Assembly: GCA_043228905.1 (NCBI GenBank)
Contig: JBHGNT010000009.1
Location: 12,586,001 to 12,650,000, forward strand
Origin: Azolla caroliniana
Taxonomy: Eukaryota > Plantae > Polypodiophyta
Direction of reading: 5' to 3'
DNA length: 64,000 bases
The position numbers were made by a program, and so were the translations under genes. A model generated the notes under the pieces. The model ran no database searches. It was not told where the DNA came from and saw only the letters and a list, made by a program, of their open reading frames with translations. Below are positions 1 to 54,354 of this stretch, piece after piece (position 1 is the stretch's first letter; each line of letters opens with the position of its first letter).

Positions 1-40
1 GAAATCAATCCTTGACATTCCAAGAACCCTAGAATATCTG
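1..40 (+). CDS. PUMY: PUMY coding exon (partial)
   Basis: Encodes KSILDIPRTLEYL; GT donor at 41. Confidence 0.88.
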
Positions 41-3826: not shown

Positions 3827-4575
3827 AAACCCTATTCACGTTCATGTATACATACACATCCTTTTCTGAATAATTCTTCTTTACATTTCACAACTGTCAC
3901 TGGGTAATCAGGCACCCGAAGGAACTGTTTAGTTTTTACGACTAGACATAGTAATGGTTTTTGGTATGTAGAATTGTTTTCCAAATGAATTGCAATGATC
4001 CAGCATCGGAAGCAAGGACCTCCATAATCAATTAAGTTCAATCTGAGGTCTATCACAATATGGAAAAGATGCATAAAAGTTTTGTTTCGGTGGCCTATTA
4101 TAGTCAAGTTCTTGAGATTGTTTAGGATCTTTGTTAGTCTCTTAAAATGCTAGATGTCTATGGTTTGACAATTATATTGGAATGCTGGGAAATTTCTTTT
4201 GTATTTTCATATGGTTTGTTTGAGCTTGAATAAAGTTAGCAATTTGGATATGTGAGAAAGAATCACAAATAAAAGCTTAGGTATTCTAGTGAAATTTGTA
4301 TGCAAGGAATACAATGAGAGCAGCTTAATGAATTAAATGGAAAGGGATGAAATAAACATTAGGCAATAATCATTGAGCATAATAAAAAATAATGAGATAA
4401 TGTTGGAGGACTTGTATTAAGAGATACCAAACGAGTTTTTGAATTTGGTAAGATCATTATGGAGTTGTAGTCATACAAATATTTATTGATAAGAAAACTC
4501 TTGCTTCTGTGTATATTGCAATATCTATCATTTAAGGTTATGAACCATATTTTTTGAGAACATGTCTTTCGCTTC

Positions 4576-33735: not shown

Positions 33736-33840
33736 CCACGCGTATTCTTTGTGTTAAGTTCTCCATTAAACCTTTTCTCATTTTCTGTCGTTATCCGGTC
33801 GAGCCGGTCTGTCTAACGCTTCCGCACACTAACTTTCACA
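33354..33840 (+). repeat. 3' LTR of A2, containing a (CT)n tract at about 33696-33733
   Basis: Follows PPT TTGAGGGGGAG; starts TATTGAG and ends ttcaCA. Confidence 0.9.
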
Positions 33841-33926
33841 TTATACATGAATTATCAACATATTATGCAGTAGTACATAAGAAAAGTACTCCATACTACC
33901 CTCAAGCTAATGGGCTAGCAAAATCC
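33841..33926 (+). pseudogene. Short old gypsy integrase fragment
   Basis: ELSTYYAVVHKKSTPYYPQANGLAKS matches the B-family integrase but is AT-rich and on the opposite strand. Confidence 0.8.
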
Positions 33927-33963
33927 ACTATAGACAGAAAATGTCATCTTTTGAATGGATAAG

Positions 33964-36900
33964 TGTAGAAAGTAGTGTGCGGAAGCAGGTATGAAGACCG
34001 AACAAGAGGAAGGAAACTCAGGTTCAATGGAGAGCTTGAGCTTACACGGTATACGCAGGAGAGACAGAGAGAGTAGACACAAAAAAATATATTCAACAAT
34101 AATACTCCTGTCTGTACATAAGACGTGCTCAGTGAACACTTTTATACAAGTCCTAGAAGGACTGACCGAAGTACTGACAGTACTTCAATGCTCATCAAGA
34201 GCTCCTACACTAACTCCCAAATATATTCCGCACGGAATATCTTTCCTAACGACCTCCCGGTTTACGCACTCAGCCTAATCGATCGGTCCCAACCGATCCG
34301 GTCCTCGGCTTCTTCAGCCGATCCGGCCGATGTTGAGCTTGTCTCTGAACAATAAGGTTCTTCCACCATGAATACTTAGACGTCAAACAAAAGTTCGGTG
34401 TGAAGCTACACCCCGGCCTCCAATGTCAATGTCTTCATGGGGTCGGCATTGTGGCAAAGCAATACAATACCCTGCTCGCCGATTGCTCCCACAACGGGAA
34501 GTCTCTGTGTGTCGATTCGGGTGCCGCGTCATTAGCTCCTTCGACATAACTCCAGTAGCCATGCCCGAGCAGGTACTGGTGCATCTTGTAGGACCAAGAC
34601 GCGTAGTTGGTTCTGTCGAGCTTCTCTATTGGAAGCAAGCTCGCCATGCCTCTATCCATCGTTCTTCTTGTTCTTCTTCGTCAAGCTGTGTCGGCTGCAG
34701 AGAGGTTCTCAACCCTCGTGCTCTGATACCATGTAGAAAGTAGCGTGCGGAAGCAGGTATGAAGACCGAACAGAAGGAAGGAAACTCAGGTTCAATGGAG
34801 AGCTTGAGCTTACACGGTATACGCAGGAGAGACAGAGAGAGTAGACACAAAAAATATATTCAACAATAATACTCCTGTCTGTACATAAGACGTGCTCAGT
34901 GAACACTTTTATACAAGTCCTAGAAGGACTGATCGAAGTACTGACAGTACTTCAATGCTCATCAAGAGCTCCTACACTAACTCCCAAATATATTCCTCTC
35001 GGAATATCTTTCCTAACGACCTCCCGGTTTACGCACTCGGCCTAACCGATCGGTCCCAACCGATCCGGTCCTCGGCTTCTTCAGCTGATCCGGCCGATGT
35101 TGAGCTTGTCTCTCAACACTCCCCCTCAAGCTCCACTTGAGGCTCTTCAGGACCTTCACAGCGCCGGTTCCTCCTGGCTTCTCGCCTTGCTCGCGCTCCT
35201 CGACATGTTCGACTCCGCACACTTCGACCCTTCCGGTCGGCTTGTCTGCTCATGCGGCCTTTATCAGCTCTTCTGCTGTTGCGGTGTTGACGCTTCTCTT
35301 GCTACCTTTTCTTCCACTTGGGCCTCGGTTGATTCAGCGTATCTGAAATCAAACATCCGAACCGACTCGGCTACCTCCGATCGGTCTTCGCTCTCGTCCG
35401 AGTTGGCTGTCTCCAACTCATGTTCGGTCATCTCGCCCTCGATGGCGTCATCTTCCCCATGCGTGGTTGCCTTCGGCTCTCTCCTTCGGTTGCTCCCCTT
35501 CTGTCCGCTTCCGAACTTTTCCGCGGGTCCGCCCTCGGCTTCTTCAGCCGATCCGAAGTCGAACTTGACAACCGACTCGGTTTCGTGGTCTCCGCTCCTT
35601 TCCTGCTGCCTTGCTTGGTCGTTCGGGACCATTCTCCCCCTCAAGTTCGGCACATCAAGGTGACGCAATCCGAGCGCACCTGAGAATTGCCGCAACTTGT
35701 CTAGACCAAGAGGTTGGTGAAGATGTCGGCAGCCTGCCGATCCGTCGGAACGTACCGAAGTTCAACTTAACCAGAAAGGACACGCTCACGGACGAAATGG
35801 TAGTGCACCTCAATGTGCTTGTACCGTGCGTGGAAGACGGGTTTCTTCGCGAGTTGGATGCTGCTGAGGTTGTCGCAGTAGATCGTCGTCAGATCTGACA
35901 CCTCCTCTTGCAGGTCCGTAAGTAGCCGCTTCAACCATATGGCTTCGCATGTCGCGACAGCCGCTCCTCGGTACTCAGATTCGGTGCTCGACAGTGCAAT
36001 TGTCGGCTGCTTCTTACTGCTCCACGCGATCGCGGCACTCCCAAGGAAGAACGCGTATCCAGACATGGATCGGCGATTGGCGGCGTTGCCAGCCCAATCA
36101 GCATCGGTGTAGCCGACTAACTGCGCGGCTGCACCGGTCCGATATAGCAGTCCGCGGTCCTTAGTGCCGCTTACGTACCGAAGTACGCGTTGCGTACACT
36201 AAAGGTGCTCCTAGGTAGGTCGCGCCATGAACTGACTGATCACCCCGACCGAATAACTGAGGTCGGGTCAGGTGATGGTCAAGTATATGAGGCTTCTGAC
36301 AATTTGTCGGAACCTCCTCGGGTCGCATTCCTTTCCCGTATCGGGACGAAGCTTGACGGTTCTGTCCAGAGGAGTCGAGACGGACTTACAGTCGGCCATC
36401 TCGAGCTTGAAGAGCATACTCAGCACGTAATGACGTTGGCTGATCAATATGCCTTCGGGGGTACGGATCACTTCGATCCCGAGGAAGTAATGAAGGTCCC
36501 CCAGATCCTTCATGTCGAACGATGCCGCAAGCTGGAGCTTCACGCGGTCGATTTCACCTAGGTCGACGTCGGTGATGACCAAGTCATCAACATATAATAA
36601 AATACTAACCGGTCCGAGTCGACCTTTCCGGATGAACACGGAAGATTCCGATTTTGACGTTACGAAGCCCATCCGACGCAGTTGTTGTGTGATCTTTGCG
36701 TTCCACGCACGAGGGGCTTGCTTCAGTCCGTAAAGGGATTTCTTCAGTCGGCATACTACTTAGGAGTTCGTTCCGGAGTGAAATCCGGGGGGCTGTACCA
36801 TGTACACCTGTTCCTCAAGGTCACCTTGCAAGAACGAATTCTTTACATCCATCTGATGTAAGTGCTACTGCGAGCAAAACTACTGCGAGCAAAACACGGA

Positions 36901-39900
36901 CGATCGTCATTTTCGCGACCGGCGCAAACGTCTCATCGTAGTCGATGTCGTGTTTCTTAGCGTAGCCCTTTGCCACTAGCCAAGCCTTGTACCGGTTAAC
37001 GGAGCCATCGGTGTTGTACTTGACCTTGTACACCCACCTACACCCGATCGGTTTTACCCCTGTTGGTGCGTCAACCAGGTCCCAGGTCTCGTTCTCCGCC
37101 AATGCGTGCATCTCTTCCTCCATCGCGGCACGCCAATTCGCGTATTTAGCCGCTTCTGCGTAGCTCTCCGGCTCACGCACTTCCGCTACACGGGTCATGT
37201 ACGCATAATGATGCGCCATGTACTCGTTGTATCCGAACCACAAAACAGGATTCTTCTGGCGGGTAGATCGGCGTAATCTCACATTAGCCGATGTCGAGGC
37301 CTTCTCGGTCGATGCGGTCTTCACCTTTAAAGACCCGTCACCGGTTCCCTCGGAGTCAGACTCATGTCGGTCTGACTCGTTCCTATCCGTGCCGGAATCT
37401 GACACCTTCTTCTTCCCTTTCTCTTTGCGCGTAAGCCGTCTCCTCGGCTTCCTGCGCGGGGAATGCACGGCCGAGTCTCCACTACTCGCCGGCTCTTCAT
37501 CGGACTGGTCGTACCGACTCAGTCGTCCAATCGGTCCACTTAACCGGAGTGAAATCGGACTCTCGTCGCGGATCTCGATTTCGGGCTCATCTGGAGGTAT
37601 CTCGGCCTCGCTGACCTCATCGTCAGAGCTCGGATTTGAGTCGGGGTTCCGAGTCGAGCTGGTACCAGGACGCAGACTCTTTCCCGCCATCCGACCGCAG
37701 GCACTTGATCTTTCGTCCCGTTTCCGTTTCCACGAACCCTTTGAGGTCCCGAAAACAGTCGAAAACTTCGCTCTTCCTCTCAATTAGGTAGATCCACGTG
37801 TGCCGCGTGTGGTCGATGAAGCAGACGAAATATCGGCTCCTGCCAAGACTAACGTTTTGTGCCGGCCTCCATACATCGGAGTGTAAAAGGTCGAGCTTAT
37901 TCCGGCTCCGGTTTCGCTCATTTGGGAAGGGAAGTCGGTGTTACTTCCCGAGCTGGCAGGCTTCACAAATTTGTGCCTTTCGGCCACTAAATTTGGGCAA
38001 TCCGAATACTACCTGTTTCAATTGCAGATCTTGAAGCCGTTGGTGGTTGACGTGGCCTATCCACTTGTGCCACAAGTCGATGTCTGACTCGGTGTTTTGT
38101 CCCTTCACGAACATTTGCGGTGTCGCCGTTAGTGGAGTCGAGGATGAACATCCTCCCGTCTCTGCGCCCTTGCGCAATCACACGGCCTTCTTCCTCAATG
38201 AAGCACCCGAGGTGTGTAAACCGAACCTCCATCCCGTGGTCGACGATCTGTTTGACCGAGACCAAGTTTTTCGTGATTGTCAGGACGTGCAACACGTTCA
38301 TGAGTTTCCCTTTTTGCCCGACATGGCTAAGGGGAACTTCTCTGACATTCGCGATCGGATGCGGAGTGTCGTTTCTAGTTGCGACTACTCCAGGTTGTAT
38401 CGGTTTTTCAAGGTACGAGAACCACTCCTTATGGCTCGTCATGTGGTTTGACGCGCCAGAGTCTACGTACCACACCTCGTCCGATCTCGGGGTGGTCTGT
38501 TTCATTGAGTTTGCTTCGTGTCTCGTCACGAAGGCAGTCCCTTCTCCGGCTCTCCCGGAGTCTTCGGCGTAGTGCGATCGCTGCCGATTTCCCTTGTCGG
38601 TATGTCTGGAGCCGTTTCCGGATCCAGTTCTCTCCGAATCGGGGCGCTTCTTCCAGCACTCACTTTCCCTGTGGCCTTTCTTGCCACAGTACCAGCACTC
38701 CGTGATGGATTTCCCTTGCCGGTTCTCATCGTTTCGACTCCCCCTGTTTCCGGAGGATCCAGAGTTGCTGTCGCCATCAGTTTGGTGCCTTCTTCCTTGA
38801 TCTCGTCGGCCGCCTCCATTGCGCGCCGACTCGCCTCGTCCTCCACATCCACAAGGCCTATCTCCCTCCGTGTACAACATTCTGTTGTCGGTGTGCGTGC
38901 TTGTAGACGCACCGACGTGGTTCTCCTCTACCAGGAGCATTGACTGTAAGTAAAAAAAGAACGGCGTATTCTCCCGGGTACACACAGCCATTCGGAACGC
39001 TCCGAACTTCGACGCCAAACCTCCGAGACAGATCTGGACCATCTCGCTCTCCTCGATGTTCACCTCTATGGAGGTGAGGGAGTCGCAGATATCCTTGATC
39101 TTCGAGGTATAGTCCGCCATCGACAAGTCGCGTTGTCGTAGGTTGCTCAACTCCTGTCGGAGCTGAAGCTTCCTGGCTGTGGTGCTCGTGGCGAAAATCT
39201 TCTTCAGATTTTCCCACGCACCCTTCGGCGTCTTTGCATCCCGAACATAGCTCAATAGTTGTTCGCCCACACACGACGTGAAGCAGTACAATACCCTGCT
39301 CGCCGATTGTTCCCACAACGGGAAGTCTCTGTGTGTCGATTCGGGTGCCGTGTCATTAGCTCCTTCGACGTAACTCCAGTAGCCGTGCCCGAGTAGGTAC
39401 TGGTGCATCTTGTAGGACCAAGATGCGTAGTTGGTTCTGTCGAGCTTCTCTGTTGGAAGCGAGCTTGCCATGCCTCTATCCATCGTTCTTCTCGTTCTTC
39501 TTCGTCAAGCTGTGTCGGCTGTAGAGAGGTTCTCAACCCTCGCGCTCTGATACCATGTAGAAAGTAGCGTGCGGAAGCAGGTATGAAGACCGAACAGAAG
39601 GAAGGAAACTCAGATTCAATGGAGAGCTTGAGCTTACACGGTATACACAGGAGAGACAGAGAGAGTAGACACAAAAAAATATATTCAACAATAATACTCC
39701 TGTCTGTACATAAGACGTGCTCAACGAACACTTTTATACAAGTCCTAGAAGGACTGACCGAAGTACTGACAGTACTTCAATGCTCATCAAGAGCTCCTAC
39801 ACTATCTCCCAAATATATTCCTCAGGGAATATCTTTCCTAACGACCTCCCGGTTTACGCACTCAGCCTAACCGATCGGTCCCAACCGATCCGGTCCTCGG

Positions 39901-39943
39901 CTTCTTCAGCCGATCCAGCTGATGTTGAGCTTGTCTCTGAACA
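33964..39943 (-). mobile_element. Ty1/copia A3 with three LTRs (33964-34351, 34732-35118, 39556-39943)
   Basis: TSD ATAAG before 33964 and after both 34351 and 39943. PBS at 39545-39555 and 34721-34731; PPT at 35119-35129. Integrase core deleted near 37680. Confidence 0.93.
37987..39483 (-). CDS. A3 Gag-protease ORF (498 aa, frameshifted after the protease)
   Basis: EKLDRTNYASWS, CWYCGKKGHRESEC and WYVDSGASNHM. Confidence 0.85.
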   Translation of the reverse strand: MDRGMASSLPTEKLDRTNYASWSYKMHQYLLGHGYWSYVEGANDTAPESTHRDFPLWEQSASRVLYCFTSCVGEQLLSYVRDAKTPKGAWENLKKIFATSTTARKLQLRQELSNLRQRDLSMADYTSKIKDICDSLTSIEVNIEESEMVQICLGGLASKFGAFRMAVCTRENTPFFFYLQSMLLVEENHVGASTSTHTDNRMLYTEGDRPCGCGGRGESARNGGGRRDQGRRHQTDGDSNSGSSGNRGSRNDENRQGKSITECWYCGKKGHRESECWKKRPDSERTGSGNGSRHTDKGNRQRSHYAEDSGRAGEGTAFVTRHEANSMKQTTPRSDEVWYVDSGASNHMTSHKEWFSYLEKPIQPGVVATRNDTPHPIANVREVPLSHVGQKGKLMNVLHVLTITKNLVSVKQIVDHGMEVRFTHLGCFIEEEGRVIAQGRRDGRMFILDSTNGDTANVREGTKHRVRHRLVAQVDRPRQPPTASRSAIETGSIRIAQI

Positions 39944-41160
39944 ATAAGGTTCTTCCACCATGAATACTTAGACGTCAAACAAAAGTTCGGTGTGAAGCTA
40001 CACCCCGGCCTCCAATGTCAATGTCTTCATGGGGTCGGCATTGTGGTGGATGATAATGTTAAGTCGGATGGTCTTCGGATATATGAGTCTTGGTTTCAAC
40101 TTGCCTTCAAAGATGGAGAAGTATGGGACCTACAAGATCAAATATTCACAATGTGGGAGAATAAGGAGGTTAAGTGTCAACGACAAAAGAAATGTAAGGT
40201 ACACCCTCAACTGGAATTAAAGACACAAGCAGCCAAGAAAATTGATTTAACTATTGAGGAAGCGGCCGACGACATGAAGTTGTCTCTATGGAGAGCAATG
40301 CAAGGTATTAAGGAGGAGCAGCTTCTTGTGTCTGTTTTGTCAAGGGTTGTGGTGAAAGAATTAAGCCTTGAAGAAATGGTCACTGAGTTCAATAAGTAAG
40401 TCTTTCAAATAGTTAATTGAACTCAATATTGTTCAATCGAAAATTCTAATATCATTTTTTGATTCGAAAAGTCCTAAGTTTACATGAAGATCCAATAAGT
40501 TATGATGAAACAACTTGGATGCATAACTTGGGAACAAGTGACCGAGGATTATCCTATAACATCTTCATATAAGGCGTTATCCGAGTATTTTATTGCATTC
40601 AAGGATTGGGTTAGTATTGGTGTTTTTCATACAATTTTTCTTATATGTAGAGGATTTGTAATAATACTTGATGTCTTATTGCCTCTATTAGAAACCTTGT
40701 CGTGGCAAGAAACCTTTTAGGTTCAAACATTTCGAATGGCCTGTCGTGGCAAGAAACCTTGTCATCATACGACGATGAACCTTTTAGGTTCAAACAATTA
40801 GAGAAGATGGTCAAGGATTTTGCTAAGCTGACAACCGCATCCTTGTGGAGGATAGTTGTCTTTCATAGTATGGACCAAGGATACTCGGTAGCTCAAGCTT
40901 TGAGATCTCACTGCGATGGCATCGAGAACCTTGCATGGTAAGGATTATTTATAAGTCTCATTTACTATATTTCTTTCTTAATATTGTTGAGTCTATTCTT
41001 CACTTGATACAATATTTTCATAGGATAAAAACAAATGTCAATAGAGGGCCAACCTTTTGGTTCGTAAATGCCATTGAATATATTACGGTTGGCTACTTCG
41101 ATGAAATAAAGAAACAAAGAATCAAGGAGCATTCAAATGAAGTTGGAGGTTCATATCTGT
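39944..41160 (+). pseudogene. Intron-containing disrupted gene, putative N4-cytosine/N6-adenine DNA methyltransferase-like (upstream piece 33927-33963)
   Basis: The reading frame runs across the A3 TSD. Donors at 40396 (GTAAGT), 40610 (GTTAGT) and 40938 (GTAAGG). Intron 40938-41023 restores WRIVVFHS...IENLAW/IKTN...FVNAIEYITVGYF. Confidence 0.55.
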
Positions 41161-43295
41161 TGTTAATCCTTAGGGCCGGACAACAGCTTAACACAGGGTG
41201 TCCACTTAAGACACTTCACCAAAGGGTGTTATGGCGAGATAACTTACGACACAACGCTTAATTGGACCTTAATCGGTTACTTAGCAATACGTCATTAACA
41301 CGCGTAAGATATACAATAAACACAGAACGGTGAACAATACTCAATGATTAAACAAAAGGTTTATATTACTCTTCGTTAATGACTACATTGTAACCGGGCC
41401 TTTATATAGGTCACCGGTGCAAAGTACAAAACGGTGCCAACCGGCACCTATTCAAGATCGGTCCGGATCTGGATCGGCATACCGATTCTAGTCTGTCCGT
41501 CCACATGTTCTCTTATATTAATATATATATTAAGACTAGTAATTTCAACAGATTCCCAAATAACAATTCCCCTTTTCACACCCTGGTCTTTGCTGGCCGA
41601 GTAACACATGGCACGCCCGTGGGACAGTACCTTGTACGTCGAATCCCACACCGGCCCCTTACTCTTCGTTCAAGATATCCAAGATGCTTTGCTCCAGGGT
41701 CTCCAATGGCTCGACGAGAATCTGTTGTTGCTGTGGTGGCTGTTGTGACTCCGATTGTTGCTCTAGCACCGGCGTTTCCGTCATTGTTTTCTCCTTTGGA
41801 GTTATCTCTGGTTGACTTACCCCGGCCTGGTCCCCGTCTGGTCCTTGTACCGGCGACGGTTCCTCATCACTAAGGTTGACCGTTGCTGCCTGCCTTGCTT
41901 TTTCTTCCCTAAGCCGGGAACGCTCATAGCTCTCAAACTGGATTTGAGCATCCATCCGATCGTCGTCCAGGTGAGCTATGAGTTGTCGGACCTGCACCAC
42001 TTGCTCATCCGCCAAAGCTATGAAATCTTTTGCTAGCTCATCCTTTATGGCGGTGAAGTCCTCCGATGTGAGCATGTAACAGTCGTCACCTTCCTTCCGC
42101 CGGTTTTCCGCGTCTGCCCTGAGCAACTGGAGTTCAACCATATTCTGCGCCCATTTCATCCACCATCACATGGAGCTCTCTTCAATCAAGCATTTGGTCT
42201 TGTTTAGCCATGCCCATAGGATGCACTGGATCCGTTCCATTCCCATCTGTGAATTGTTCTCCATGGCTTGTCGCTCCTCTTTTAATTGCTTGATGATTCT
42301 AACCGTGTCCGCCTCCTACTCCCTATAATGCGACAATTGACTTTGATAGGTTGTTTACAACCTCTATAACACCATTGTCGCCCTCTCCTTTTCTTCATTG
42401 TGCTGCTTGTGGAGCTCCATCCGGTCCCTCGCCACTTCCTCCAATAGCTTTGTATTCTCAGCCCGTTCATCGGCGAGTGCCGTCGTGGCCCGATCAACTT
42501 CCTACCGGAGCTCGGCCATCCTTTCCTCCTATTGTTTATGCTCCGTGTCCAAGCTCTTAAAGTTCTGGTGCTGGTGGTCGAAGTCCTCTGTCTTCTGCTT
42601 CAGCCTCTGGTTGATTTGCCGGAGAGCGCGGTCTTCCCGGTCCTTTTGTTGACGGATTTCTTCTTTCAGCCTTTCGATTTCCGTTTCCGCCATCCGTCGC
42701 AGCTTGTCCTTCTCCTACAACAATTTTTCTTTTTCCTCTAGCCGGTCATAAGCTTGATGCCCTTTCCGCAGATTTTCTTCTGCTCGACAGAGGTTTTCAG
42801 CAATCTTCATTAACTCCTGTTCTGCCGCTTTCTTCAAATCTCGTTCGCGGCTCTGTAGTGCTTCTTGTGCGGCAAGTTCGTCCCTTAATTCGGCAAGATC
42901 TTGGGCTTCCACCGCATCTTTCTCTAGGACGGTTTTTGTCTCTGGGGTCTTATTCGTGTGTACAAGCGTGGTTGTTTCTTTATTCTGTACATCCACCGGA
43001 GTCACTAGTGCTTGGATCTGTGTTGCGGTTAAGGCCATTTTGGCCATGTCTTCTGTGACCCGATCCAAGTCTTGTTCAAGGCACCGGATCCTTGACCATG
43101 CCATCTCTAGTTCATCGGTTGTGACTAGCAACCGTTCCATCTGCGCTCGATCTTCCTTCTCTACATACAATATCACTCCGGCAACCTGCTCTCCTATCCA
43201 CCGGAGCCATTGGCTGCCAGTACCCTGTTGTTGCGTCTGCACGGAGGGTTGGCTGATGGGTTCACTTGCCAGTGGCCGGTCCCGCCTAATTGCGT
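41161..43295 (-). mobile_element. Ty3/gypsy B3, 3' LTR and extra-ORF C-terminus; the rest is displaced by C1
   Basis: LTR 41161-41606 resembles the B1 LTR; ORF pieces 41659-42159 and 42715-43290 are homologous to the B4 extra ORF. Confidence 0.9.
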
Positions 43296-43821
43296 TGTCG
43301 TAGTGTAATTCGCACACTACGTGAAAAATTACATTTTTGGTTTCTCCGGATGTTATTCTCTGGCCGGACAAGGCCTAACACAAGGTGTCACGGAGACACT
43401 TCACCAAAGGGTGATTACGGCATAGGATTCAGATTCAACGATTACACTGACTTACGTAGGTTACACGATTAGAATGCTTTGGTTAATTACACGCGTAAGA
43501 TATAACAGTAAGTACAGAACGGAAATCAACACAGAAGTATAAACACCATATGCTCTATTAATTATCCGCTGCGATTACAATGGGGTCCGGGCCTTTAAAT
43601 AGGTTTCCGGCCCGTAGTACAAAACGGTGCCTCTCGCACCTATTCGGGATCCGTCCGGATCTGGAACGGCATACCGTTTCCAGTCCGTCCGTCCACACTA
43701 TGCTTATTTACAACCATACTTAATTAATTCCTTCACTCCGTATTTTGGACTCCTTGCCGGCCGGTAACACATGGCACGCCCGTGGGACAGTACCTTGTAC
43801 GTCGAACCCTTCTCGGCCCCT

Positions 43822-46545
43822 TCATTGTTCACCCAAATTGTCCAAAATACTTTGTTCCAGAATTTCCACTTGTTCTTCCGGTTGTGGTTGTTGCGGCTGT
43901 GCTTGCTGCTGCTGCTGTGGTTGCGGTTGGGACTGAGGCTGCTCCGGCTGCTCTGCTTGCTGCTGCTGTTGTGGTTGCGGTTGGGACTGAGACTGCTCCG
44001 GCTGCTCTGTAGGCGGCTGCTCCGTTTGTTTCTCTGACTCCGGCATCTCCGTTTGACTGCTTCCGGTCCGGTCTCCTTCCAGTAACGGTTCCTCATCACT
44101 GAGGTTGACCGTAACCGGTTCTCGTGCTTTCTGTTCCCGGATCCGGGACCTCTCATAGCTTTCAAACTGGATCTGCGCCTCCAGCCTGTCGTCGTCCAGC
44201 TGAGCTACAAGTTGCCGGACTTGCCCTAGTTGGTCCTCTGCCAAGGCTTGAAAGTCTTCGGCCAGCTCATCTCTTATGCCGGTGAAGTCTTCGGAAGTCA
44301 GCATATAGCAATCTTCTCCCTCCTTCCGCCGGTTCTCTACGTCGGCCCGGAGCAATTGGAGTTCCGCCGCGTTCGTGGCCCACTTGGTCCACCATTTGAC
44401 GGAACCGTTGTCAATCAAGCTCTTGGTCTGGTTCAACCAGGCCCGCATGATATCCTGGATACGACTTGCTCCCATTTGCGCTCTACTTTCCACAACTTGT
44501 CGTTCCTCCTTCAACTGCTTGATGAGATTAGCCGTATCCTCCGCCTGCTCTCTGTAGCGCGTCAGCTGCCCTTGATATGTGGTCTGCAGTCTCTGCAGTA
44601 CCTCCGCCGCTCTTTCTTTTTCCGCCTGCTGTTGCCTGAGGAGCTCTGTCCGAACCTTCTCCGCCTCTTCCAACCGTCTTCTGGTTTCCGCTTGTTCATT
44701 AGCGTATGCCGTTGCGGTCCGATCAACCGCTTGCCGGAGCTCATCCGTCCGTTCCTTGTGCTCCGTTTGCAACCGTTTATACTCCCAGTGCAATTGCTCA
44801 AATTCCTCCGTTTTTTGTTTGAGCTTGCCGTTGATCTGGCGATGGTTCCGGTCCTCCCGGTCCTTTAGCTGCCGGAGTTCCTCTTTCAGGCGCTCTATTT
44901 CTGTTTCGGCGTTTCTCCGGAGCCTGTCCTTCTCTTGCAGCATTTTCTCCTTTTCCTCCTTGAGCCGGTCGTACGCTTGGTAGCCTTTTCGTAAGCTCTC
45001 CTCGGCCCGGCGTAGATTCTCAGCCGCCTTTTTGAGTTCCGCCTCCGCTGCCGTCTTCAATTCTCTTTCACGGCTCCTCAGCGCTTCTTGGGCAGCTAGC
45101 TCATCCTTTAAGTCCGCAAGCTCTTGGGCTTGTGCCGCATTTCTCTCCGGAACGGTTTCCGTTGCCGGGGTCTGATTGCTATGTACAGGTTGATCTGACG
45201 CTTTATTCTGTACATTGCCCGGAGTCACCGGTGCTTGGACTTGTGTTGTCAAAGCCAATTGAGCCATTTCCCTTGTGACCCTGTCCAAGTCTTGTTCAAG
45301 GCTCCGGATTCTGGACCGGGCTGTCTCTAGATCTACGGTTGTGACGAGCAACCGTTCGTTGTGCGCTCTCTCCTCCGCCTCTATGTACTCGACCGCTCCG
45401 ACGATCTGCTCGCCTACCCACCGTAGCCACATGCTACTGGTGCCTTGCTGCTGTACTGGTCGGGTCGGCTCGTTTACTGTGGAATTGTCTGGCCTGAGTG
45501 CTTGTATCTGCCGTTCTGTTTCTACTCCTTGGCCGCCGTGTGTGCTGGCTGGGCTCGCCGGCTGTTGAGTTCCGGTTCTCGCCGTCTCCGGAGCCGTTGG
45601 AATGACTTCTTCTATAGAAGTCGACAAGGCCGGTTCCATACGCACCGGTTCCAGTTCCTCCCTTGTGGTTTGCTCAGGTTGAGTTGGGGACGTTTCTTCC
45701 TCTTGCAGGTACGAACGGTCCCCCGCTGTCCCGGCGGTCCTACTTCTTGACCGTCGTTGGAGGTGCTCTTCTGGCTCCTCCGTTTCCTCTTCCTGGGTAA
45801 CGGCATGTTTCTGTGCCGTCAAGGGTTTCGGTTCCTTCTGTCCCGGTCGCCGTATGGTTATCTTAACGGGTCGGACCGGTGACACCTCCTCTGGTTCTGG
45901 GAGCCGTTTCTTTCCTTTCGTCGCCTTTGACGCCAGCAGCTACTGTCGTTTGGACGCGGGTTTCGAAGTGCTTCCTTCCGATAATCTTGGCCGCTTCTTT
46001 GGCTGAACGGTCTCGACCGGCGGCACGAGCAATGTTATCCACTGAGCTACAGCATGCCACAGCTTCCGGCCCTCCTTGCCGTCCTTCCCTCGTACCATGT
46101 CGATTGCCGCGCACAAACCGTCTGCAATCAACACCGGCCAGTCCACCTTGATCCCTTCATAGGTGGCTATGATCATCCCTGCTCGATTTTTCGGCATGAC
46201 AGGGGGTCGGGGGTACACGTGGCCGTACTCATGGAGCACTCGAGCTATCTCCCTGAATAGCGGATCTTCGCCGCCCTGCGTTCGATAGCCTTTGCCGGCT
46301 ACAGAGTACTCACCGAAATATCGGATGAGTTGCTCCGAGGTTGGGTTATCAATCTGAAAAATACCTCCCTCCGGAAGGCCTGTTAGCGCACGGATCGCTT
46401 CCTCGGTGATGACTTCCGTGTCGAGCTCCTTGATGACCCGGTCGGCTTCTCTGTGCGGTGGTGCCTCCATGATGGTGAAGAACCCCTCCAGTCCGTGTTG
46501 CCTGAACCATTTCCTGGCCGCTTCCGACAACGTTTGTGGTTCCAT
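43822..46545 (-). CDS. B4 extra ORF, about 907 codons with one in-frame TAG at 45940-45942
   Basis: ORFs 45940-46845 and 43822-45885 are in the same frame. The start MEPQTLSEA is conserved in B1 and B2, which have Q at the TAG position. Confidence 0.8.
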
Positions 46546-46929
46546 GTCTGCTTCGAGGTCGAGGAAGGATGGCGAGGTAGAGTGGTGATGAGAGTGACAG
46601 CGAGAGAGAGAGCGTTCCGAACGTGGGGGTTCTTTGAGTGCAGGTTCGCGTTTGCTAAGCTTCCACTGCCTTGGTGCTTCTGTGCTTCTTGGCTCGCGAA
46701 AACAAAAGGTCTCCATGCGTTCTTCTTTTTCTCTGTGCGTCTTGGCGCCTTTTTCGAGCATGCGCACGTCGTGTACCAAATTAGTATTAAGCAATGTGGC
46801 GGCTCTTAAATGCCCACTACGTACCTTTTCGCTCCTTGCTTTCACGTCCGTTCATACCTCGATTTTTAATGATTTTTTTTTTTTTTTTTTTTTTCTTTTC
46901 TTTTCTCTTTTTAATGACGGTATGTGATC

Positions 46930-49900
46930 TTACACATCCGTAGGTCCCTTCGGACCCTTACCGTTTTCCTTACGGGTTGCCGTGTCTTCCTTCGCCTCTG
47001 CTACGGGTTCCCCGTCGTCTTTTCCTTCCATTCGTACCGTTCTCGGACAGGTTCTCGGTATAGTGCCGGTGGGCTGCATAAACGGGTTATTTGGCATCGG
47101 TCCTTTATACGGCTTTAGTCTAAATCCGTTCACCCACTTGCCTAGTACTTCACCGGCAAGTGTCCCTATCTGATAGGACCCGTTGTATTCCCGTGTCAGC
47201 CAATACGGGCCTGTCCATCTAAACCGGAGTTTACCCGGCATCTTGCCCATCCTCGTTTGGAATACTAGCACCGGCTTTCCGATTTCGAACATCTTTTCGT
47301 TACCTTTCCGGTGACGGTCAACGAACGCTTTCCGTCGTCGTTGCTCCAGTTCCATGTGTAGGATGCTGGCCAACCGTTGCTCCTCCAGTTTGCATAGTGC
47401 TGCTAGCCGCATTTCCTCCGACTTCTTTTCATTCAGCCGTTCCCGTAGTTGGATCCGTAAGCTTGGTACCTGAAATTCCACCGGCATGACCGCCTCTAAG
47501 CCGAACGCTAACCGGAATGGCGTTGTCCGGATACTTGTCTTGTATGCCGTTCGGTACGCCCATAGCGCGCTATGGAGCTTTGTATCCCAGTCCGTCCGGT
47601 TTTCATTGACGATTTTGCGGAGAATGTTCTGCAGCGTTTTGTTGGTGGACTCTGCTAACCCGTTCGCTTGTGGGTAGTACGGTGTGCTCCGTTTATGGAC
47701 CACGGCATAGAACGTTGTTAAGCTTTCAACTACCTGGCCGAGGAAGTGCCCTCCTTGGTCGCTGATTAATTCAATCGGACATCCATATCGGCACCAAATG
47801 TTCTCGTACAGGAATTTTGCTGTGGATGACACGGTATTGTCTCTCAAGGCCTTAGCCTCCACCCATTTAGTGCAATAATCTGTTGCCACGATGACATAAC
47901 GATTACCCGTTCTCATTGCCGGTGGCTTGAACAGTCCGACAAAATCCAACCCCCACTTCTGAAATGGCTCTAGTGGAAGTACCGGTTGGTGTGGCATCCG
48001 TGCTTGCTCCGTAGGCTGGCCCATTCGTTGGCATAGGTCACATTCCTTAGCATACTTGACGGCGTCTTTTAACGTCGTGGGCCACCATAAGCCGCTCTGC
48101 CATACTTTCCTTGTCGTCGCTTCCCCGGCGTAGTGTCCTCCGGCAACCCCACAGTGTGCTTCCCGTAAGATTACTTCTTTCTCGTCACTACGGACTGCCC
48201 GTCTCCATATTCCATCTGCTCCCTTGTGGTAGAGAGTGTCCCGTAACAGACAGAAATTGCGGCTCTGCACCGCCAGTCGTTTCCTCTCGTCCCGGTTCAT
48301 TTCCTCCGGTGGCAGGCCTGTGCTTAGGAACTGGTGCATGTTTGTCAGCCACCTATCTTCTGATACCACCGTGTCGTCCGTTGCCGTTTCCGGGGTGATA
48401 CGGAATAACTCTGCGTCCGGGAATTCATCCGCTACTCCGTCGCCTGATCCTCCGCACTCTAACCGGCTCAGATAGTCTGCTACGGCATGCTGGATACCGG
48501 GCCGGTGGAAGATCTCGAATTCGAACTCCTGCAACAGCAAGGTCCAACGGGCCAACTTACCGGTCAGGGACGCCTTGGACACTAAGTACAGGAGCGCCGA
48601 GTGATCCACATGAAAGGAGAACTTCCTTCCCAATAGGTAATGACGAAACTTTGTGACACTGTAGATCATACCCAGGGCCTCCCGTTCCGTAGTCGAATAG
48701 TTCTTCTCCGCTTGGGACAGCTTCCGGCTGGCGTAGTATACCGGCCGGTACCATTTGGGCTCCGTAAGTTGCATTAAGGCGCTGCCGATAGCGATGTCGG
48801 AAGCGTCAACGAACACATGAAATTCCTTGCTCCAATCCGGAGGCTGCACGACGGGTGCTTGCGACAAAAGTATCTTCAGGGCGTTGTATGCCTTGTCTTC
48901 CGTATCCGTCCATTGGAACGGTGTCCGATGTACCGCGGTGTGTAATGGTGTAGCCAAGTCAGCCAAGTGACGGAGCATCCGGCTGTGCCACCGGATCTGT
49001 CCTAAGAATCGGCTGAGTGCTTTGGCCGTTTTCGGCGCCGGTGCCCCTAGTATCGCGTTTACTTTGTCCGGGTCGACCGCAATGCCCTCCTTACTTACAA
49101 TGTGGCCCAGTAAGATTCCACTTGAAACCCCAAAGATGCATTTTGCTAGGTTTAAGCTTAGCCGGTATAACCTACACTTTTCAAGGCATAACCGTAGGTG
49201 TTGCAAATGGTTTTTTCCTCGGCTATAGACTGCAAAATCATCCAGGAAAACCTGCATGAAGGCAGGAATGTATTCGCCGAAGATCTCCATGATGATTCGC
49301 TGGAAAGTTGCTGGTGCCGTTTTTAGGCCGAACATCATTACTTCGGCCACAAACACCCCCCATTCGGTGACGAACGCTGTCTTCTCCTGGTCGTCGGGGT
49401 GCATCCGGATTTGATTGTATCCGTTGAACCCGTCTAAAAAACTATAAACTTCATGGCCGGCGACGGCATCCAGTACTCCATCCGTGAACGGAAGAGGGAA
49501 TGCATCCGTAATTGTGGCTGCATTTAATTTCCTGTAATCTACACACACGCGGATTTTACCGTTCTTCTTTGGGACGACGACGATGGGGCTTAGCCACGTC
49601 GCTTTCTTTATCGGCCGGATGAAACCCACTCTCAGGAGTTTGTCGATTTCCTCCTTCACTTTGGCAGCGTAGTTGGGGTTCATTCGGTAACGTCTTTGCG
49701 CCACTGGTTTCGCGTCCTTGCCTAAGTGGATCTGATGCTGATATAATTGAGGGTCCAGCCCTCGCATGTCTTCGTATGACCAGGCGAATACGTCGTGAAA
49801 CTCCGTGAGAAGTTTGATCATTGCTGCTTTATCTTCCGGCTTCATTTCTTTGGCGATGTGTACCGGCTTTGATTCTTCCTTGCTTTCGAGGTTCACTTCG

Positions 49901-52776
49901 TCGAGCTGGGATGTTTTTACCCGTTGGGAAACGACCATTTCCCGTTCCAACGCCTCCTGTGCTTGCCGTAATTCCCGAATTGCATCTTTGTCTGGTTCGG
50001 CTTCGGTTTCGTCCCGTTGTGGCAAGTATGGCGCTACGGCTTTAGCTACGTCAATCTCGAAGAGTGGTACGATCTTCGGGTGTTCCTCCAAGTACTGGGC
50101 TTCTTCGTCGTCTGCCAACCCTTCAAGCATGTTCACGCATTCCGCATACAGTGGTGTGCATTCCTTACCGTTGCTTGTCCGTGGTTGTGTCGGTACCCGG
50201 ACCTTGGCTTTTCCGCGCCGGAAGGTAATCATATTTTTCCGCCAATTTTGCTTGATGTGTGATGTTTTCAACCATGGTCTGCCCAGCAACAGTGGGTACG
50301 CGCCTTGCGCCTGTAGCTGCAGCACTACAGCCGAGATGTGAAATGTGTGACCTCCTATGGTGACTTCCAATTTCCGTATTAAGCCCGTCGGCCGTACAGA
50401 GCTCGTATCCGCCATCCGTAGCCAGAACGGACATGGCTCCCATTCATGTATACCCAAGGCATCGCACGTGCGGAGGCTTATTACGTTCACCCCGGAACCT
50501 CCATCGATTACTGTGCCGGGAAGTTCGTGCCCTTTGACAATAGCTGTAATCACCGGACTACTAGTGTCCACCACCGTCGGTCCCTCCTCCGGATTCGAGC
50601 AGAAGACTGGTGCCGGTGGGGCTATACCGTCTGTCATGACCGTTTTTAGTCCTTCCGTAAATCGCGCCACGAGCTGCAAGAGTCTTCCTAATGGCAACGT
50701 GATCTGACATTCTTGCAGTGCTTGCCATGTCTCGTTTTCTGCGTGGCTACCGCCGGCACTCCCTATGGTATTCGCCTTTTGCCGTTCCACGTCCGCGACG
50801 TTCCTTTCATTGGCTTCCTTCACCCATTCCGTCGCCTGTTTTCGTATGGCCTCTTGTGTTTCCCACTCTTTGGCCATGCCTTTCGACCGTGTGGTTACTT
50901 GTTGTACATCCGTCACTTCCGGAACCACCATATTAACTGCTGGTCGTTTCTCGTAGCTCTTTACCGGGCACTGGTTACTGTAGTGGCCTTCCTGCCTGCA
51001 GTAGTAGCAGTACTCTTTACGGGTATTGCTGGATTCAGCATTGCTGGTAGCCGGAGTCAGTCCCGTAGTGAGTGGTGCGTTCTGTGCCGGTTGGCTCCTT
51101 GGGGTTCCAAGTTCCGGGTCCCTAGGGTGACCACCTTTCTTGAAATTACGTTTCTTATTATTCTTATTTTTATTGCGGTAGTCCGGTCGTGGTGGATCGT
51201 AAAATCGGCCGTAGTCCTCCTGGTGCTTCCGGTAACCAGGGGAATGGTCTCTGTTGTATTGCTCGTGTCGTCTGTTGGACTCCCGATAACGGTCCGATCG
51301 CTCATACCGGTCATAGTTATCATGCCGATTCCCGTACCGGCCATCATTCTCTTGTCTATCTCCGTACCGGGCATCCTGTGCCGGTCGGTACCAGTTCATT
51401 CTTTGCCAACGATCGTCATCTTCGTCCCGGCTGCTTCTTGGCTCGATCCGTCGGACGGGTGGTGCTTGTCGGTTTAACAGGTTATACTCGCACCGGTCTG
51501 TTGTGTGACTCTTGGATTGACAAATCACACACTGGGTTCGCATGGTGCACTCCACTGCCGAGTGTCCGGCATTCAAGCAGATTGTGCATTGAATTGCCTG
51601 CCGGAACCGGAGATCTTCCTCGGTGGGTGACGCCCGTTGCAGTGTTCCCAGTGTAAGCCATGAGCTTGACTTTTCCATTTCTCGGACCCGGTCAATGACC
51701 TGGTCAATGGTGCTTCCTCGAAAGTCGATTACCGTACACACCGTGCGTAACGGTTCCCGGAGTGCGTTTAAAAATATCGTCCGTAATTCCTCCTCTGGGG
51801 ATGCACGGGTAAGCTGGCTATGCATTCGTTGGAAACGGATGACGAATTGGGGAATGCTTTCCCCTGCCTCCTGTCGGATCGTATAAAACAGGCCCACCAT
51901 TGTCGTCTGGTCGACCTCCTTGTGGAAAAAATGCAAGAATTTTGCTTTTAATTCTGCAAAGGTTGTGATGGTCGCCGGGTCCTGCGTCCGCCGCCATCGT
52001 GTCGCTGGTCCTTCCAACGTGACCCCGAATTCCGCTATCTTCGAGCGTTCTTCTTCCTCCGGTGTCATTTGCTGGGATGGGTGATTTGCTTCCCATGTCT
52101 GCTCGAAGGCATGAACATGCGCTTCCGCGTCCGGGTCATCGCGATACTTTGAGTATTGGAACGGCATGTCGTCGTCCAGTATTAGGCCGCGGTTTAGTGG
52201 CGTTTGTTGATATCTTTCAGGTTTTCTCTCCGGTTCCACTTCCGGTTCTTTTTCCGGTTCCTTCACCGGCTCTTCTTCCGGTGCCTTTGTCGGCTCTTTT
52301 GTTGGTGTCGGTGGCTTTGCTTCTTCCACTTCCGGTGTTGGTGGGTTGACGGCTTCCGTTTGTGGTTGTGGATAGCCCTGGTCGAACGGTTCCGGTTCTG
52401 GAGTCGGTACGGTATCCGACCCGTCGTCCTCCGGGCCGCCGGGGGTATCGTTGCTGCTCCGGTAGTTCGTGTGCACGCTATATCCCCCTTCGGAATCCGA
52501 TTCGTAGGCTGAAAAGGCTTCTGCCTCGTTTTCTCCGCTTGCTAGCGCCTCGAGGAGGCGTTCGGTTTCCCGGAGACTACTTAGACTGCTTCCGTCGTCC
52601 TGGTCGCGAGTTTGCCGTAACCGAAGAGATTCCTCCGCGACTCTCCGGATCTCGTTGGAGAACGAACGATCCGAGCGAATTTCGTGCGCTGCTTGCTGGA
52701 AAGTCTCACGCCGTCTTTGCCGTTCGGCGAGGCGTCGAGCTCGGTCTGTAACCAGGTCGTGCGTTGGTCTCGTCAT
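46930..52776 (-). CDS. B4 Gag-Pol polyprotein, single intact ORF of 1948 aa
   Basis: Gag with zinc knuckles, PR VIDGGSG, RT FLDD, RNase H FVDAS, IN HHCC plus WGLDF...SDQG...E and GPY motif. No chromodomain seen. Confidence 0.96.
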   Translation of the reverse strand: MTRPTHDLVTDRARRLAERQRRRETFQQAAHEIRSDRSFSNEIRRVAEESLRLRQTRDQDDGSSLSSLRETERLLEALASGENEAEAFSAYESDSEGGYSVHTNYRSSNDTPGGPEDDGSDTVPTPEPEPFDQGYPQPQTEAVNPPTPEVEEAKPPTPTKEPTKAPEEEPVKEPEKEPEVEPERKPERYQQTPLNRGLILDDDMPFQYSKYRDDPDAEAHVHAFEQTWEANHPSQQMTPEEEERSKIAEFGVTLEGPATRWRRTQDPATITTFAELKAKFLHFFHKEVDQTTMVGLFYTIRQEAGESIPQFVIRFQRMHSQLTRASPEEELRTIFLNALREPLRTVCTVIDFRGSTIDQVIDRVREMEKSSSWLTLGTLQRASPTEEDLRFRQAIQCTICLNAGHSAVECTMRTQCVICQSKSHTTDRCEYNLLNRQAPPVRRIEPRSSRDEDDDRWQRMNWYRPAQDARYGDRQENDGRYGNRHDNYDRYERSDRYRESNRRHEQYNRDHSPGYRKHQEDYGRFYDPPRPDYRNKNKNNKKRNFKKGGHPRDPELGTPRSQPAQNAPLTTGLTPATSNAESSNTRKEYCYYCRQEGHYSNQCPVKSYEKRPAVNMVVPEVTDVQQVTTRSKGMAKEWETQEAIRKQATEWVKEANERNVADVERQKANTIGSAGGSHAENETWQALQECQITLPLGRLLQLVARFTEGLKTVMTDGIAPPAPVFCSNPEEGPTVVDTSSPVITAIVKGHELPGTVIDGGSGVNVISLRTCDALGIHEWEPCPFWLRMADTSSVRPTGLIRKLEVTIGGHTFHISAVVLQLQAQGAYPLLLGRPWLKTSHIKQNWRKNMITFRRGKAKVRVPTQPRTSNGKECTPLYAECVNMLEGLADDEEAQYLEEHPKIVPLFEIDVAKAVAPYLPQRDETEAEPDKDAIRELRQAQEALEREMVVSQRVKTSQLDEVNLESKEESKPVHIAKEMKPEDKAAMIKLLTEFHDVFAWSYEDMRGLDPQLYQHQIHLGKDAKPVAQRRYRMNPNYAAKVKEEIDKLLRVGFIRPIKKATWLSPIVVVPKKNGKIRVCVDYRKLNAATITDAFPLPFTDGVLDAVAGHEVYSFLDGFNGYNQIRMHPDDQEKTAFVTEWGVFVAEVMMFGLKTAPATFQRIIMEIFGEYIPAFMQVFLDDFAVYSRGKNHLQHLRLCLEKCRLYRLSLNLAKCIFGVSSGILLGHIVSKEGIAVDPDKVNAILGAPAPKTAKALSRFLGQIRWHSRMLRHLADLATPLHTAVHRTPFQWTDTEDKAYNALKILLSQAPVVQPPDWSKEFHVFVDASDIAIGSALMQLTEPKWYRPVYYASRKLSQAEKNYSTTEREALGMIYSVTKFRHYLLGRKFSFHVDHSALLYLVSKASLTGKLARWTLLLQEFEFEIFHRPGIQHAVADYLSRLECGGSGDGVADEFPDAELFRITPETATDDTVVSEDRWLTNMHQFLSTGLPPEEMNRDERKRLAVQSRNFCLLRDTLYHKGADGIWRRAVRSDEKEVILREAHCGVAGGHYAGEATTRKVWQSGLWWPTTLKDAVKYAKECDLCQRMGQPTEQARMPHQPVLPLEPFQKWGLDFVGLFKPPAMRTGNRYVIVATDYCTKWVEAKALRDNTVSSTAKFLYENIWCRYGCPIELISDQGGHFLGQVVESLTTFYAVVHKRSTPYYPQANGLAESTNKTLQNILRKIVNENRTDWDTKLHSALWAYRTAYKTSIRTTPFRLAFGLEAVMPVEFQVPSLRIQLRERLNEKKSEEMRLAALCKLEEQRLASILHMELEQRRRKAFVDRHRKGNEKMFEIGKPVLVFQTRMGKMPGKLRFRWTGPYWLTREYNGSYQIGTLAGEVLGKWVNGFRLKPYKGPMPNNPFMQPTGTIPRTCPRTVRMEGKDDGEPVAEAKEDTATRKENGKGPKGPTDV

Positions 52777-54354
52777 CCATTAAGCCGTCGTTCGCTGCGA
52801 GAAAGCAGGAATCGTGGTCGCCAAAACTGTGTTATTCTCTGGCCGGACAAGGCCTAACACAAGGTGTCACGGAGACACTTCACCAAAGGGTGATTACGGC
52901 ATAGGATTCAGATTCAACGATTACACCGACTTACGTAGGTTACACGATTAGAATGCTTTGGTTAATTACACGCGTAAGATATAACAGTAAGTACAGAACG
53001 GAAATCAACACAGAAGTATAAACACCATATGCTCTATTAATTATCCGCTGCGATTACAATGGGGTCCGGGCCTTTAAATAGGTTTCCGGCCCGTAGTACA
53101 AAACGGTGCCTCTCGCACCTATTCGGGATCCGTCCGGATCTGGAACGGCATACCGTTTCCAGTCCATCCGTCCACACTATGCTTATTTACAACCATACTT
53201 AATTAATTCCTTCACTCCGTATTTTGGACTCCTTGCCGGCCGGTAACACCGGATAGGATATGGAGTACCCAGTGAGAACCGGAAGGAAGAACCGGTGAGG
53301 ACCGAAACTGGTAAGGAGACTGACAAGAGCCGGATGAAGAAGGCCGGTGAGAGTTGTTGAGAAACGGACGAAGAGGACCAGTAAGAAGGATCCGGTAAGA
53401 ACCGCATGAAGAAAACCGGCAAGAACCGGATGAAGCAGAATCGGCAAGAGCAGGACGAAGAAGGCCGGTGAGAGTCTCTCACCAGATGAAGAGACATATT
53501 TGTAAATAGAACCTTGCACCTCCATGTTAATAATGTTAAGCCTTATCAGTATACTAGCGTATTATGAATTTTAAAAGTTATACTAAACTTTATCCCATGT
53601 AAAATTTCTAGACATGCATGGTACAAAAAGTTATTCATGCATAAACACTCGAGTTAAAAGAAAAGATGAGATAGGAAGCTAATCATGCACATGCAGTGTG
53701 CATGAAAACTAAAAATAGGAAAAGCATGATGCTTGCATGTGACAAACTTAGACTCTTCCAACACTATATAAGGAAGAGAGAAAGATGTATAGAGGTTGTT
53801 GATTATTTTACAAGGATTTTGATCAATCTAATATATTCGTGGGATTCACGATTTTTTTCCATCTATTTCTCTCTTACATTCTCAGTATCAATTAATACAC
53901 TGTACTCGTGGGATTCACGAGTTTCATATCTTCTTTCAAATATTTCTCTTTCTTGCAATCGATTCATAAGGAGCCTTATCTCATATTCTTCTTTCTCCTA
54001 GTCCAAAACCTCAACGGTTCCCACCCGACTCACGCAACGATCCGGAGCCGAAAGGCACGACACAAGTGGTGAACCCGACGTGAACACGGGTGGCAAGGAG
54101 ATGGAAAATCAACCGGAGGCTAACAACATGATGATGATGTTCAAGCGGATGCTTCAGGAACAACGTGCGATGTCGGAGATAGCGGCGGTAGTAGAGCGGC
54201 TCGTGCAATGGATCGGGCAATTCAACGGAAAGGATGTATCACGCTATCTTCGGGACTACAAGGCAAAAATGCTACGGTGTAGGATTTCAGAAGGACTGCA
54301 AGTGGCATCCTTCAACTGGCTGGCTATCGACGGGCTTCAAGCAAGTATCCACGG

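Follow-up and report, generated by a model that had tools for sequence, protein, structure and literature searches.

A dead fragment of a Sola1-like transposon gene in Azolla caroliniana, and its intact relatives as likely ParB-guided adenine methyltransferases

Transposons that carry a DNA methylase together with a ParB-like domain have been described in algae. The Ectocarpus element Sola1-1_Ec32 is 21.5 kb long, with 282-bp imperfect terminal inverted repeats (TIRs), AACCG termini and a 4-bp target site duplication (TSD) leaning to a final A. Opposite its transposase, whose best match is a moss Sola1 transposase, lies a gene encoding a ParB-like domain and an N4/N6 methyltransferase, for which self-binding and self-modification were proposed (PMC12477816). 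Red algal Plavaka (EnSpm) elements carry as cargo, in PAG2/PAG3, a PF01555 methylase and a ParB-like domain, and the available text of the same study names VANDAL elements as the only ones described as binding and modifying their own sequence (10.1101/2025.02.11.637652). MpDN4MT1 of Marchantia and N4CMT of bdelloid rotifers are reported as domesticated host genes with an SPPY motif that write N4-methylcytosine (4mC) (10.1101/2021.02.12.428880, PMC8885841). DIRS and LTR retrotransposons carrying DAM are also on record, with raised N6-methyladenine (6mA) and transcription reported for the LTR elements; that account treats 6mA as thought lost from major multicellular lineages, and its available text makes no reference to PF01555, land plants or bryophytes, and DNA transposons come up in it a single time, in the introduction (10.64898/2026.05.21.726589). 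Land plants are reported to have few N6A methylases (PMC4738411). A land-plant account of the ParB-methylase design was not found in the literature searched; Repbase, subscription papers and supplements were beyond reach and may describe moss or fern elements.

We analysed 64,000 nucleotides of the Azolla caroliniana genome (the window; contig JBHGNT010000009.1, positions 12,586,001 to 12,650,000, assembly GCA_043228905.1), in which a sequence-only reading had proposed a hidden, spliced methyltransferase gene. The stretch in question derives from a real spliced gene, an accessory gene of a Sola1-like cut-and-paste DNA transposon, of which it is a dead fragment. We give a probability of about 0.65 to the reading that the window holds a dead piece of such a gene and that the intact gene encodes a ParB-guided adenine methyltransferase marking the promoter region of its own element. 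Metagenome contigs yielded 133 relatives, of which 80 loci were kept; because all 80 come from one assembly series, up to 11 from one assembly, they do not represent independent genomes. Counts of introns and motifs below cover the 31 of these 80 loci that match exons 2-5 in full; the remaining 49 are short or broken.

The gene fragment in the window

The DNA of the window is plant-like and crowded with nested copia and gypsy elements. The surviving scrap of the gene, on the forward strand, amounts to ~1.25 kb and is broken at both ends. To its left lies a forward-strand gypsy integrase fragment (33840-33931), 73% identical over 30 amino acids to the window's gypsy integrases by tblastx. It is fused to the methylase gene via a 4-nt overlap (ACTA), as placed against relatives L001, L002 and L010, and the junction marks a deletion that took the 5′ part of the gene and element. 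The first piece of exon 1 (33927-33963; 86% identity to L010 1211-1247, E 9.5e-6) is separated from the remainder by a reverse-strand copia LTR retrotransposon (33964-39943), recognized by self-BLAST, Pfam gag and protease matches and the TSD ATAAG (33959-33963 and 39944-39948). As the sequence-only reading had held, removal of this element joins exon 1 in one frame, with 162 stop-free codons; the frame runs from 33926 rather than from 33927. The first residue, H, which had been counted as part of the gene, derives from the junction, because the gypsy integrase fragment lies left of 33927; the relatives have D there.

The 3′ part of exon 1 (39944-40395) shows 89% amino acid identity to L001/L002 and encodes the helical region that follows the ParB/sulfiredoxin (Srx) core, residues 168-318 of the folded model of a relative. 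Nine exon 1 residues that are fixed in five relatives differ in the window copy. Exon 2 (40472-40609) is flanked by intron 1 (40396-40471, 76 nt) and intron 2 (40610-40691, 82 nt), both GT..AG and both at junctions used in the Ceratopteris model P0073. The start of exon 3 (40692-40712), as aligned to L010 and L002, is followed by 49 nt of filler (40713-40761) built from copies of 40778-40798 and 40693-40712. The 3′ part of exon 3 (40762-40937), with the methyltransferase helix and strands that come after motif IV, is 93% identical to the DIPY-bearing proteins P0001-P0011, and alone scores 56 bits on a profile of distant homologues. Intron 3 (40938-41023, 86 nt, GT..AG) splits a W-x-K strand that is contiguous in Ceratopteris P0178 and in the intron-free P0190-P0192. 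The 5′ half of exon 4 (41024-41160), also placed by alignment to relatives (85% to L004 exon 4 over 47 amino acids), stops short of the NPYQKP and DLFSGTG (SAM-binding) motifs.

The support for the predicted splicing is comparative. GT..AG is present at all four intron positions in 31/31 full-length relatives (intron lengths 68-128 nt), the exons predicted for the window are joined in the same way in Ceratopteris models P0073 and P0178, and the exons tile the intron-free relatives P0190-P0192 with no gap. A profile built from 16 distant homologues, all outside the window's own subfamilies, gives the peptide spliced from 40762-41160 a score of 82.8 bits; the best unspliced frame reaches 53.7, and none of 200 shuffles exceeds 3.5. 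The short introns of the sequence-only reading, including 40938-41023, and its spliced peptide thus stand as written. No clean spliced joint was seen in the contigs of three possibly-RNA runs compared with L002 and of one compared with the window, which is uninformative either way. Summed contig depth over the fragment is high, depth not being copy number.

The window copy, 83-90% identical in nucleotides to L002 and L010, can no longer produce the enzyme: it is a pseudogene fragment of this family. It has been damaged by deletions and two LTR insertions, and contains no catalytic and SAM-binding motifs in an open frame. Exon 2 has lost 1 nt near 40478 and has a TAA stop at 40496-40498. In exon 3 a deletion of ~270 nt (L002 2446-2715), filled by the 49 nt of local duplicates, removed the catalytic DIPY motif; the duplication that was thought to have scrambled a PPY region is thus real, but the motif was deleted, not scrambled. 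The 3′ end is cut at 41160 by the LTR of gypsy element B3 (41161-41505, reverse strand, preceded by TCTGT). A far end of B3 with a TCTGT TSD had been predicted, and a SAM-binding motif beyond B3 and a further insertion, C1; there is no matching far B3 LTR within the window, and blastn (word size 7) and tblastn revealed no further part of the gene or element there. Transposase and terminal repeats have no match anywhere in the window, the ParB core is missing from it, and so is the palindrome array of the relatives (1 match at 2 mismatches, 0.57 expected).

Other features of the window were noted in passing. The copia element carries an extra LTR and an exact copy (103/103 nt) of 39944-40046 at 34352-34454, so that 33964-34730 comprises the extra LTR, the host-gene copy and a primer-site-side internal piece; since the copia LTRs differ by 3% yet the host copy is identical, this region suggests a recent template switch or an assembly artefact. 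A young gypsy element at 43351-53249 has a CCGGA target duplication, LTRs identical at 418/420 positions and a gag-pol frame of 1949 amino acids; a 705-amino-acid frame within this region (43822-45939) has no Pfam match. Positions 1-3830 translate as the 3′ exons of an intron-rich host gene, presumably a pseudouridine-5′-phosphate glycosidase, and three tandem 147-nt copies lie in one of its introns (1068-1514).

Intact relatives and their carrier element

The intact gene has five exons, which encode a ParB-fold N-terminus followed by an N6_N4_Mtase domain in exons 3-5, in line with the intron-containing gene with a long N-terminal region that had been envisaged. The catalytic motif reads DIPY in 31/31 full-length loci and lies in exon 3, before the SAM-binding motif DLFSGTGTT, which spans exons 4-5 and is found in 30/31; L034, among the short or broken loci, reads GIPY. 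Stops occur in four of the full-length loci (L026, L031, L055 and L065), the other 27 of 31 being stop-free over the region tested. In 13 pairs, pN was 0.016-0.11 and pS 0.19-0.82 (dN/dS <0.1), so selection has long maintained the domain. By these substitution ratios, the intact gene is under strong purifying selection.

Profile and motif comparisons place the intact relatives in the beta-class N6/N4 amino-methyltransferase family, PF01555, as the sequence-only reading had predicted. PF01555 exceeds its cut-off (26.7 bits) on the relatives' exon 4/5 (E 1e-8 to 1e-10), with 35-42 bits on L002, L004, L008 and L054 and 57-66 bits on P0178 and P0187; E values for the Ceratopteris and Ginkgo models are 3e-15 and 8e-18. 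A family profile first matches CcrM, MboIIA, RsrI and DpnA (E 5e-11 to 3e-7), while the 4mC enzymes reach E 1e-3; profiles of exon 3 or exon 4 taken singly find solved methylases only at E 0.1-0.8. The predicted structure of P0192, a distant intron-free relative and not a spliced member of the window's subfamily, gives a Rossmann-like fold match, to CcrM at E 3e-13, and BceJIV is also among the best by fold. DIPY aligns with the DPPY of CcrM and MboIIA, the first Pro of the (D/N/S)PP(Y/F/W) consensus being replaced by Ile; we found no paper on DIPY as a motif IV variant in a literature search. The D/SPPY motif that had been anticipated is thus not what the relatives carry, and the SPPY of N4CMT/MpDN4MT1-type enzymes is absent from all 31. 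There are closer comparisons than the one drawn with these rotifer and Marchantia enzymes, which also belong to PF01555: the best solved matches are N6-adenine enzymes.

The exon 1 domain of a relative folds in silico (pLDDT 79) as a ParB/sulfiredoxin N-terminal domain. Its top Foldseek matches are Noc/ParB (E 5e-6 to 9e-4), it superimposes on PadC with Z 10.1 (rmsd 3.0 over 100 residues) and on Srx with Z 8.2, and an Atlas cluster search gave a ParB_N lead; Pfam gave no ParB match on this domain. For the helical part, matches to ParB/KorB DNA-binding domains are weak (Z no higher than 5.3). GxxR is the CTP-binding motif of the clamp-forming bacterial ParB proteins. Here the corresponding loop reads GGSHS or GGNHS in 13/13 aligned rows and has no GxxR arginine, which makes clamp-like behaviour doubtful. 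In the Atlas, the ParB part most resembles unnamed clusters from sponges and molluscs, and fungal DUF3723, a hint that this type of domain is widespread in eukaryotic elements.

The relatives lie within transposons, as had been suspected. L004, L050 and L031 hold both ends of elements of 6-8.6 kb with TIRs of 33-34 nt (AACAC...GTGTT), which match at 33/33 nt in L050, 32/34 nt in L031 and, up to the contig end, 26/26 nt in L004. Thirty termini were found, 27 of them starting AACAC, with unrelated flanks. Head-to-head with the methylase gene stands a divergent transposase gene containing DUF7869 (Pfam E 1.8e-53) and three conserved Asp motifs; we take this protein to resemble Sola1 transposase, and DUF7869 was not found in the literature searched. 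A full or near-full transposase lies upstream in 6/80 loci (L004, L005, L031, L047, L050 and L054) and a partial one in L049. Most contigs that lack it begin inside the array spacer; L065 has 4.7 kb upstream without a transposase. Between the two genes is an array of the palindrome TCGAT(A/G)C-N3-G(C/T)ATCGA, spaced mostly 40-52 nt apart. Of its 90 matches, spread over 25/80 loci, 88 lie upstream of the gene and two belong to a nested sister element; L047 alone has 14, compared with none in 200 shuffles. The anatomy of the family is thus very probably a TIR element with a DUF7869 transposase, a five-exon ParB-methylase gene and a palindrome array. The gene travels as cargo of a transposon and is no epigenetic gene of the host.

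The base outside the terminus is A in 15/30 flanks. Neither L050 (ATTG/GCCA) nor L031 (TATG/TTAC) has a 4-nt target duplication, though collapsed assemblies may mix the flanks of different copies. Insect Sola1 is reported to prefer AWWT targets (PMC3845634), which were found in 0/30 flanks. An AA^TT target without duplication was considered and rejected, because the empty site of the element nested in L014 runs on differently. That element, a sister, lies within intron 4 of the methylase gene (L014:3280), and L051:3960-4052 is flanked by a sister transposase; family elements insert into each other. The C-terminus of the transposase at L004:387-2873 has conserved aromatic motifs (HQFWIGKV...VHWY) that recall chromatin-reader barrels. 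The TIR pattern was absent from the viral contigs searched, and nothing usable emerged from the CpG content of the element.

An exon 3 profile found 165 representatives at E ≤0.001. Thirteen of the 20 looked up carry a plant name (Chara braunii, Riccia sorocarpa, Diphasiastrum complanatum, Adiantum nelumboides and Ginkgo), and further homologues are present in Ceratopteris and in a second Ginkgo model. In a midpoint-rooted tree with long branches and no outgroup, which names no donor, the window fragment groups with the metagenome subfamilies (100/99), and this group falls within a set that includes Ceratopteris and Diphasiastrum (98/99); its nearest named homologues are those of a fern and a lycophyte. 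None of 45 candidates in GTDB genomes was confirmed, and the best phage and plasmid matches were below 30% identity. Because no close prokaryotic relative was found in these sources, the prokaryotic origin appears to be old, and no donor can be named. The horizontal derivation that had been proposed therefore holds only in a deep sense; against a more recent one stand homologues from Chara to Ginkgo, the missing close prokaryotic relative and a design already published for algae. The Chara model P0220 has two ParB-methylase units in tandem. In the Diphasiastrum model P0198 an apparent cytochrome P450 is joined to methylase exon 3, probably a mis-joined prediction.

What the intact protein may do

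We consider it probable that the intact protein is an active DNA amino-methylase, and we lean, if only slightly, towards self-marking with 6mA at the array. The ParB part would dimerise at the palindromes in the manner of bacterial ParB at parS, and binding would bring the methylase to the promoter common to both genes. There the methylase would convert adenines within or close to the TCGA cores to N6-methyladenine, beside the CG that the host would methylate. Since the array lies in the shared promoter and each TCGA contains a host-methylatable CG, such a mark would likely shield the element, keeping the transposase and methylase genes from silencing. The Asp of motif IV and the ranking of the solved matches point to 6mA over 4mC. 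The broadest version is tentative, and we rate it somewhat below even odds. It holds that a large and long-lived transposon family is present in streptophytes from Chara through ferns to Ginkgo, and that this family, by means of its ParB-methylase fusion, deposits its own 6mA of bacterial type on a parS-like palindrome array.

Two other readings keep the protein functional. It could be a catalytically dead pseudo-methylase, a palindrome-binding scaffold that aids transposition or blocks silencing factors and writes no mark. DIPY is non-canonical, more distant relatives drift further (DIPH in Ginkgo, DAPY in Adiantum, DFPY in Chara, DLPR in P0271), and the methylases of DIRS retrotransposons were judged inactive (PMC4738411). 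We nevertheless regard this as unlikely, given that the Asp, the second Pro, the aromatic residue and DLFSGTGTT are kept in subfamilies only 52-57% identical and that these motifs align with those of CcrM and MboIIA. Alternatively, the enzyme could be active but write 4mC, or act elsewhere, on new insertion sites, the transposition intermediate or host DNA broadly. The N6_N4 fold is reported to have switched repeatedly between 6mA and 4mC, and the nearest bacterial kin of the rotifer enzyme to recognise TCGA, the core of the array (PMC8885841); PvuII ranks 6th and the rotifer 4mC enzyme 10th in our fold search. This, too, seems improbable: motif IV begins with Asp as in 6mA enzymes and not with Ser, the top five matches by fold and the top four by sequence are 6mA enzymes, and the fused ParB domain and the array argue for local targeting.

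Introns, strong purifying selection and annotated fern and Ginkgo models would suit a domesticated host gene, or a recent bacterial transfer, with a Marchantia- or rotifer-like epigenetic role. This interpretation is already largely refuted and very unlikely for the ParB-methylase family, in view of the many divergent subfamilies, each ending in TIRs with unrelated flanks (30 termini), the presence of up to 11 of the 80 loci in one assembly, the lack of a close GTDB, phage or plasmid relative, and the death of the window copy. Last, Pfam finds no methylase in the window's own exons, and the fold search does list METTL3 and MTA1 (at ranks 44-50, with E about 1e-6), as it might if the fragment were a chance resemblance or an MT-A70 (METTL3/METTL4-type) pseudogene. 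The chances of this are negligible, as relatives at 89-93% identity pass the PF01555 cut-off, prokaryotic beta-class enzymes rank seven orders of magnitude higher by fold, and the shuffles stay far below the spliced peptide. We thus favour the ParB-guided, self-marking adenine methyltransferase. If this is true, the family would carry a self-addressed mark against silencing, and multicellular plants, in which 6mA is held lost or artefactual, would have a genuine source of DNA 6mA that can be mapped. For plant 6mA the family supplies a named enzyme together with a predicted site and a location to examine, testable with existing long-read data, and a compact ParB-plus-methylase protein with a 17-nt address could serve as a targeting tool.

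Comparison with known systems

Among prokaryotic enzymes, CcrM, M.MboIIA, M.RsrI, DpnA and M.BceJIV share with the plant protein the fold, the order of catalytic before SAM-binding motif and a KP before the SAM loop. The plant protein differs from them in its low structural identity (15-19%), DIPY for DPPY, four introns and the fusion to a ParB fold. Like MpDN4MT1 and N4CMT it is a eukaryotic, bacteria-derived, beta-class PF01555 enzyme, but those, as described, have no extra domain or a chromodomain, whereas this one has DIPY and a ParB domain and moves with a transposon. The DAM-carrying elements resemble it in having a transposon-borne, prokaryote-like adenine methylase; unlike the carrier here, they are retrotransposons. 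Beside the VANDAL elements, self-modification by a writer would, if it takes place, be a second route.

The algal transposons come closest. Plavaka also has methylase and ParB cargo, and its ParB gene is described as lying beside tandem inverted-repeat arrays; there, however, methylase-SET and ParB-2OG oxygenase are separate genes, whereas here ParB and methylase form one protein, and Plavaka belongs to a different transposase superfamily. Green algal cases were reportedly covered by Iyer in 2011. With Sola1-1_Ec32 the plant elements share a ParB-methylase gene opposite the transposase, termini that start AAC and an outside base that leans to A. They differ from it in being 6-8.6 kb long, in TIRs of 33-34 nt, in AACAC termini and in a land-plant host, the proteins being compared by description only. 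The window copy itself adds little, being dead and of a design already published for algae; with its relatives, that algal design is extended to land plants, with a testable target site.
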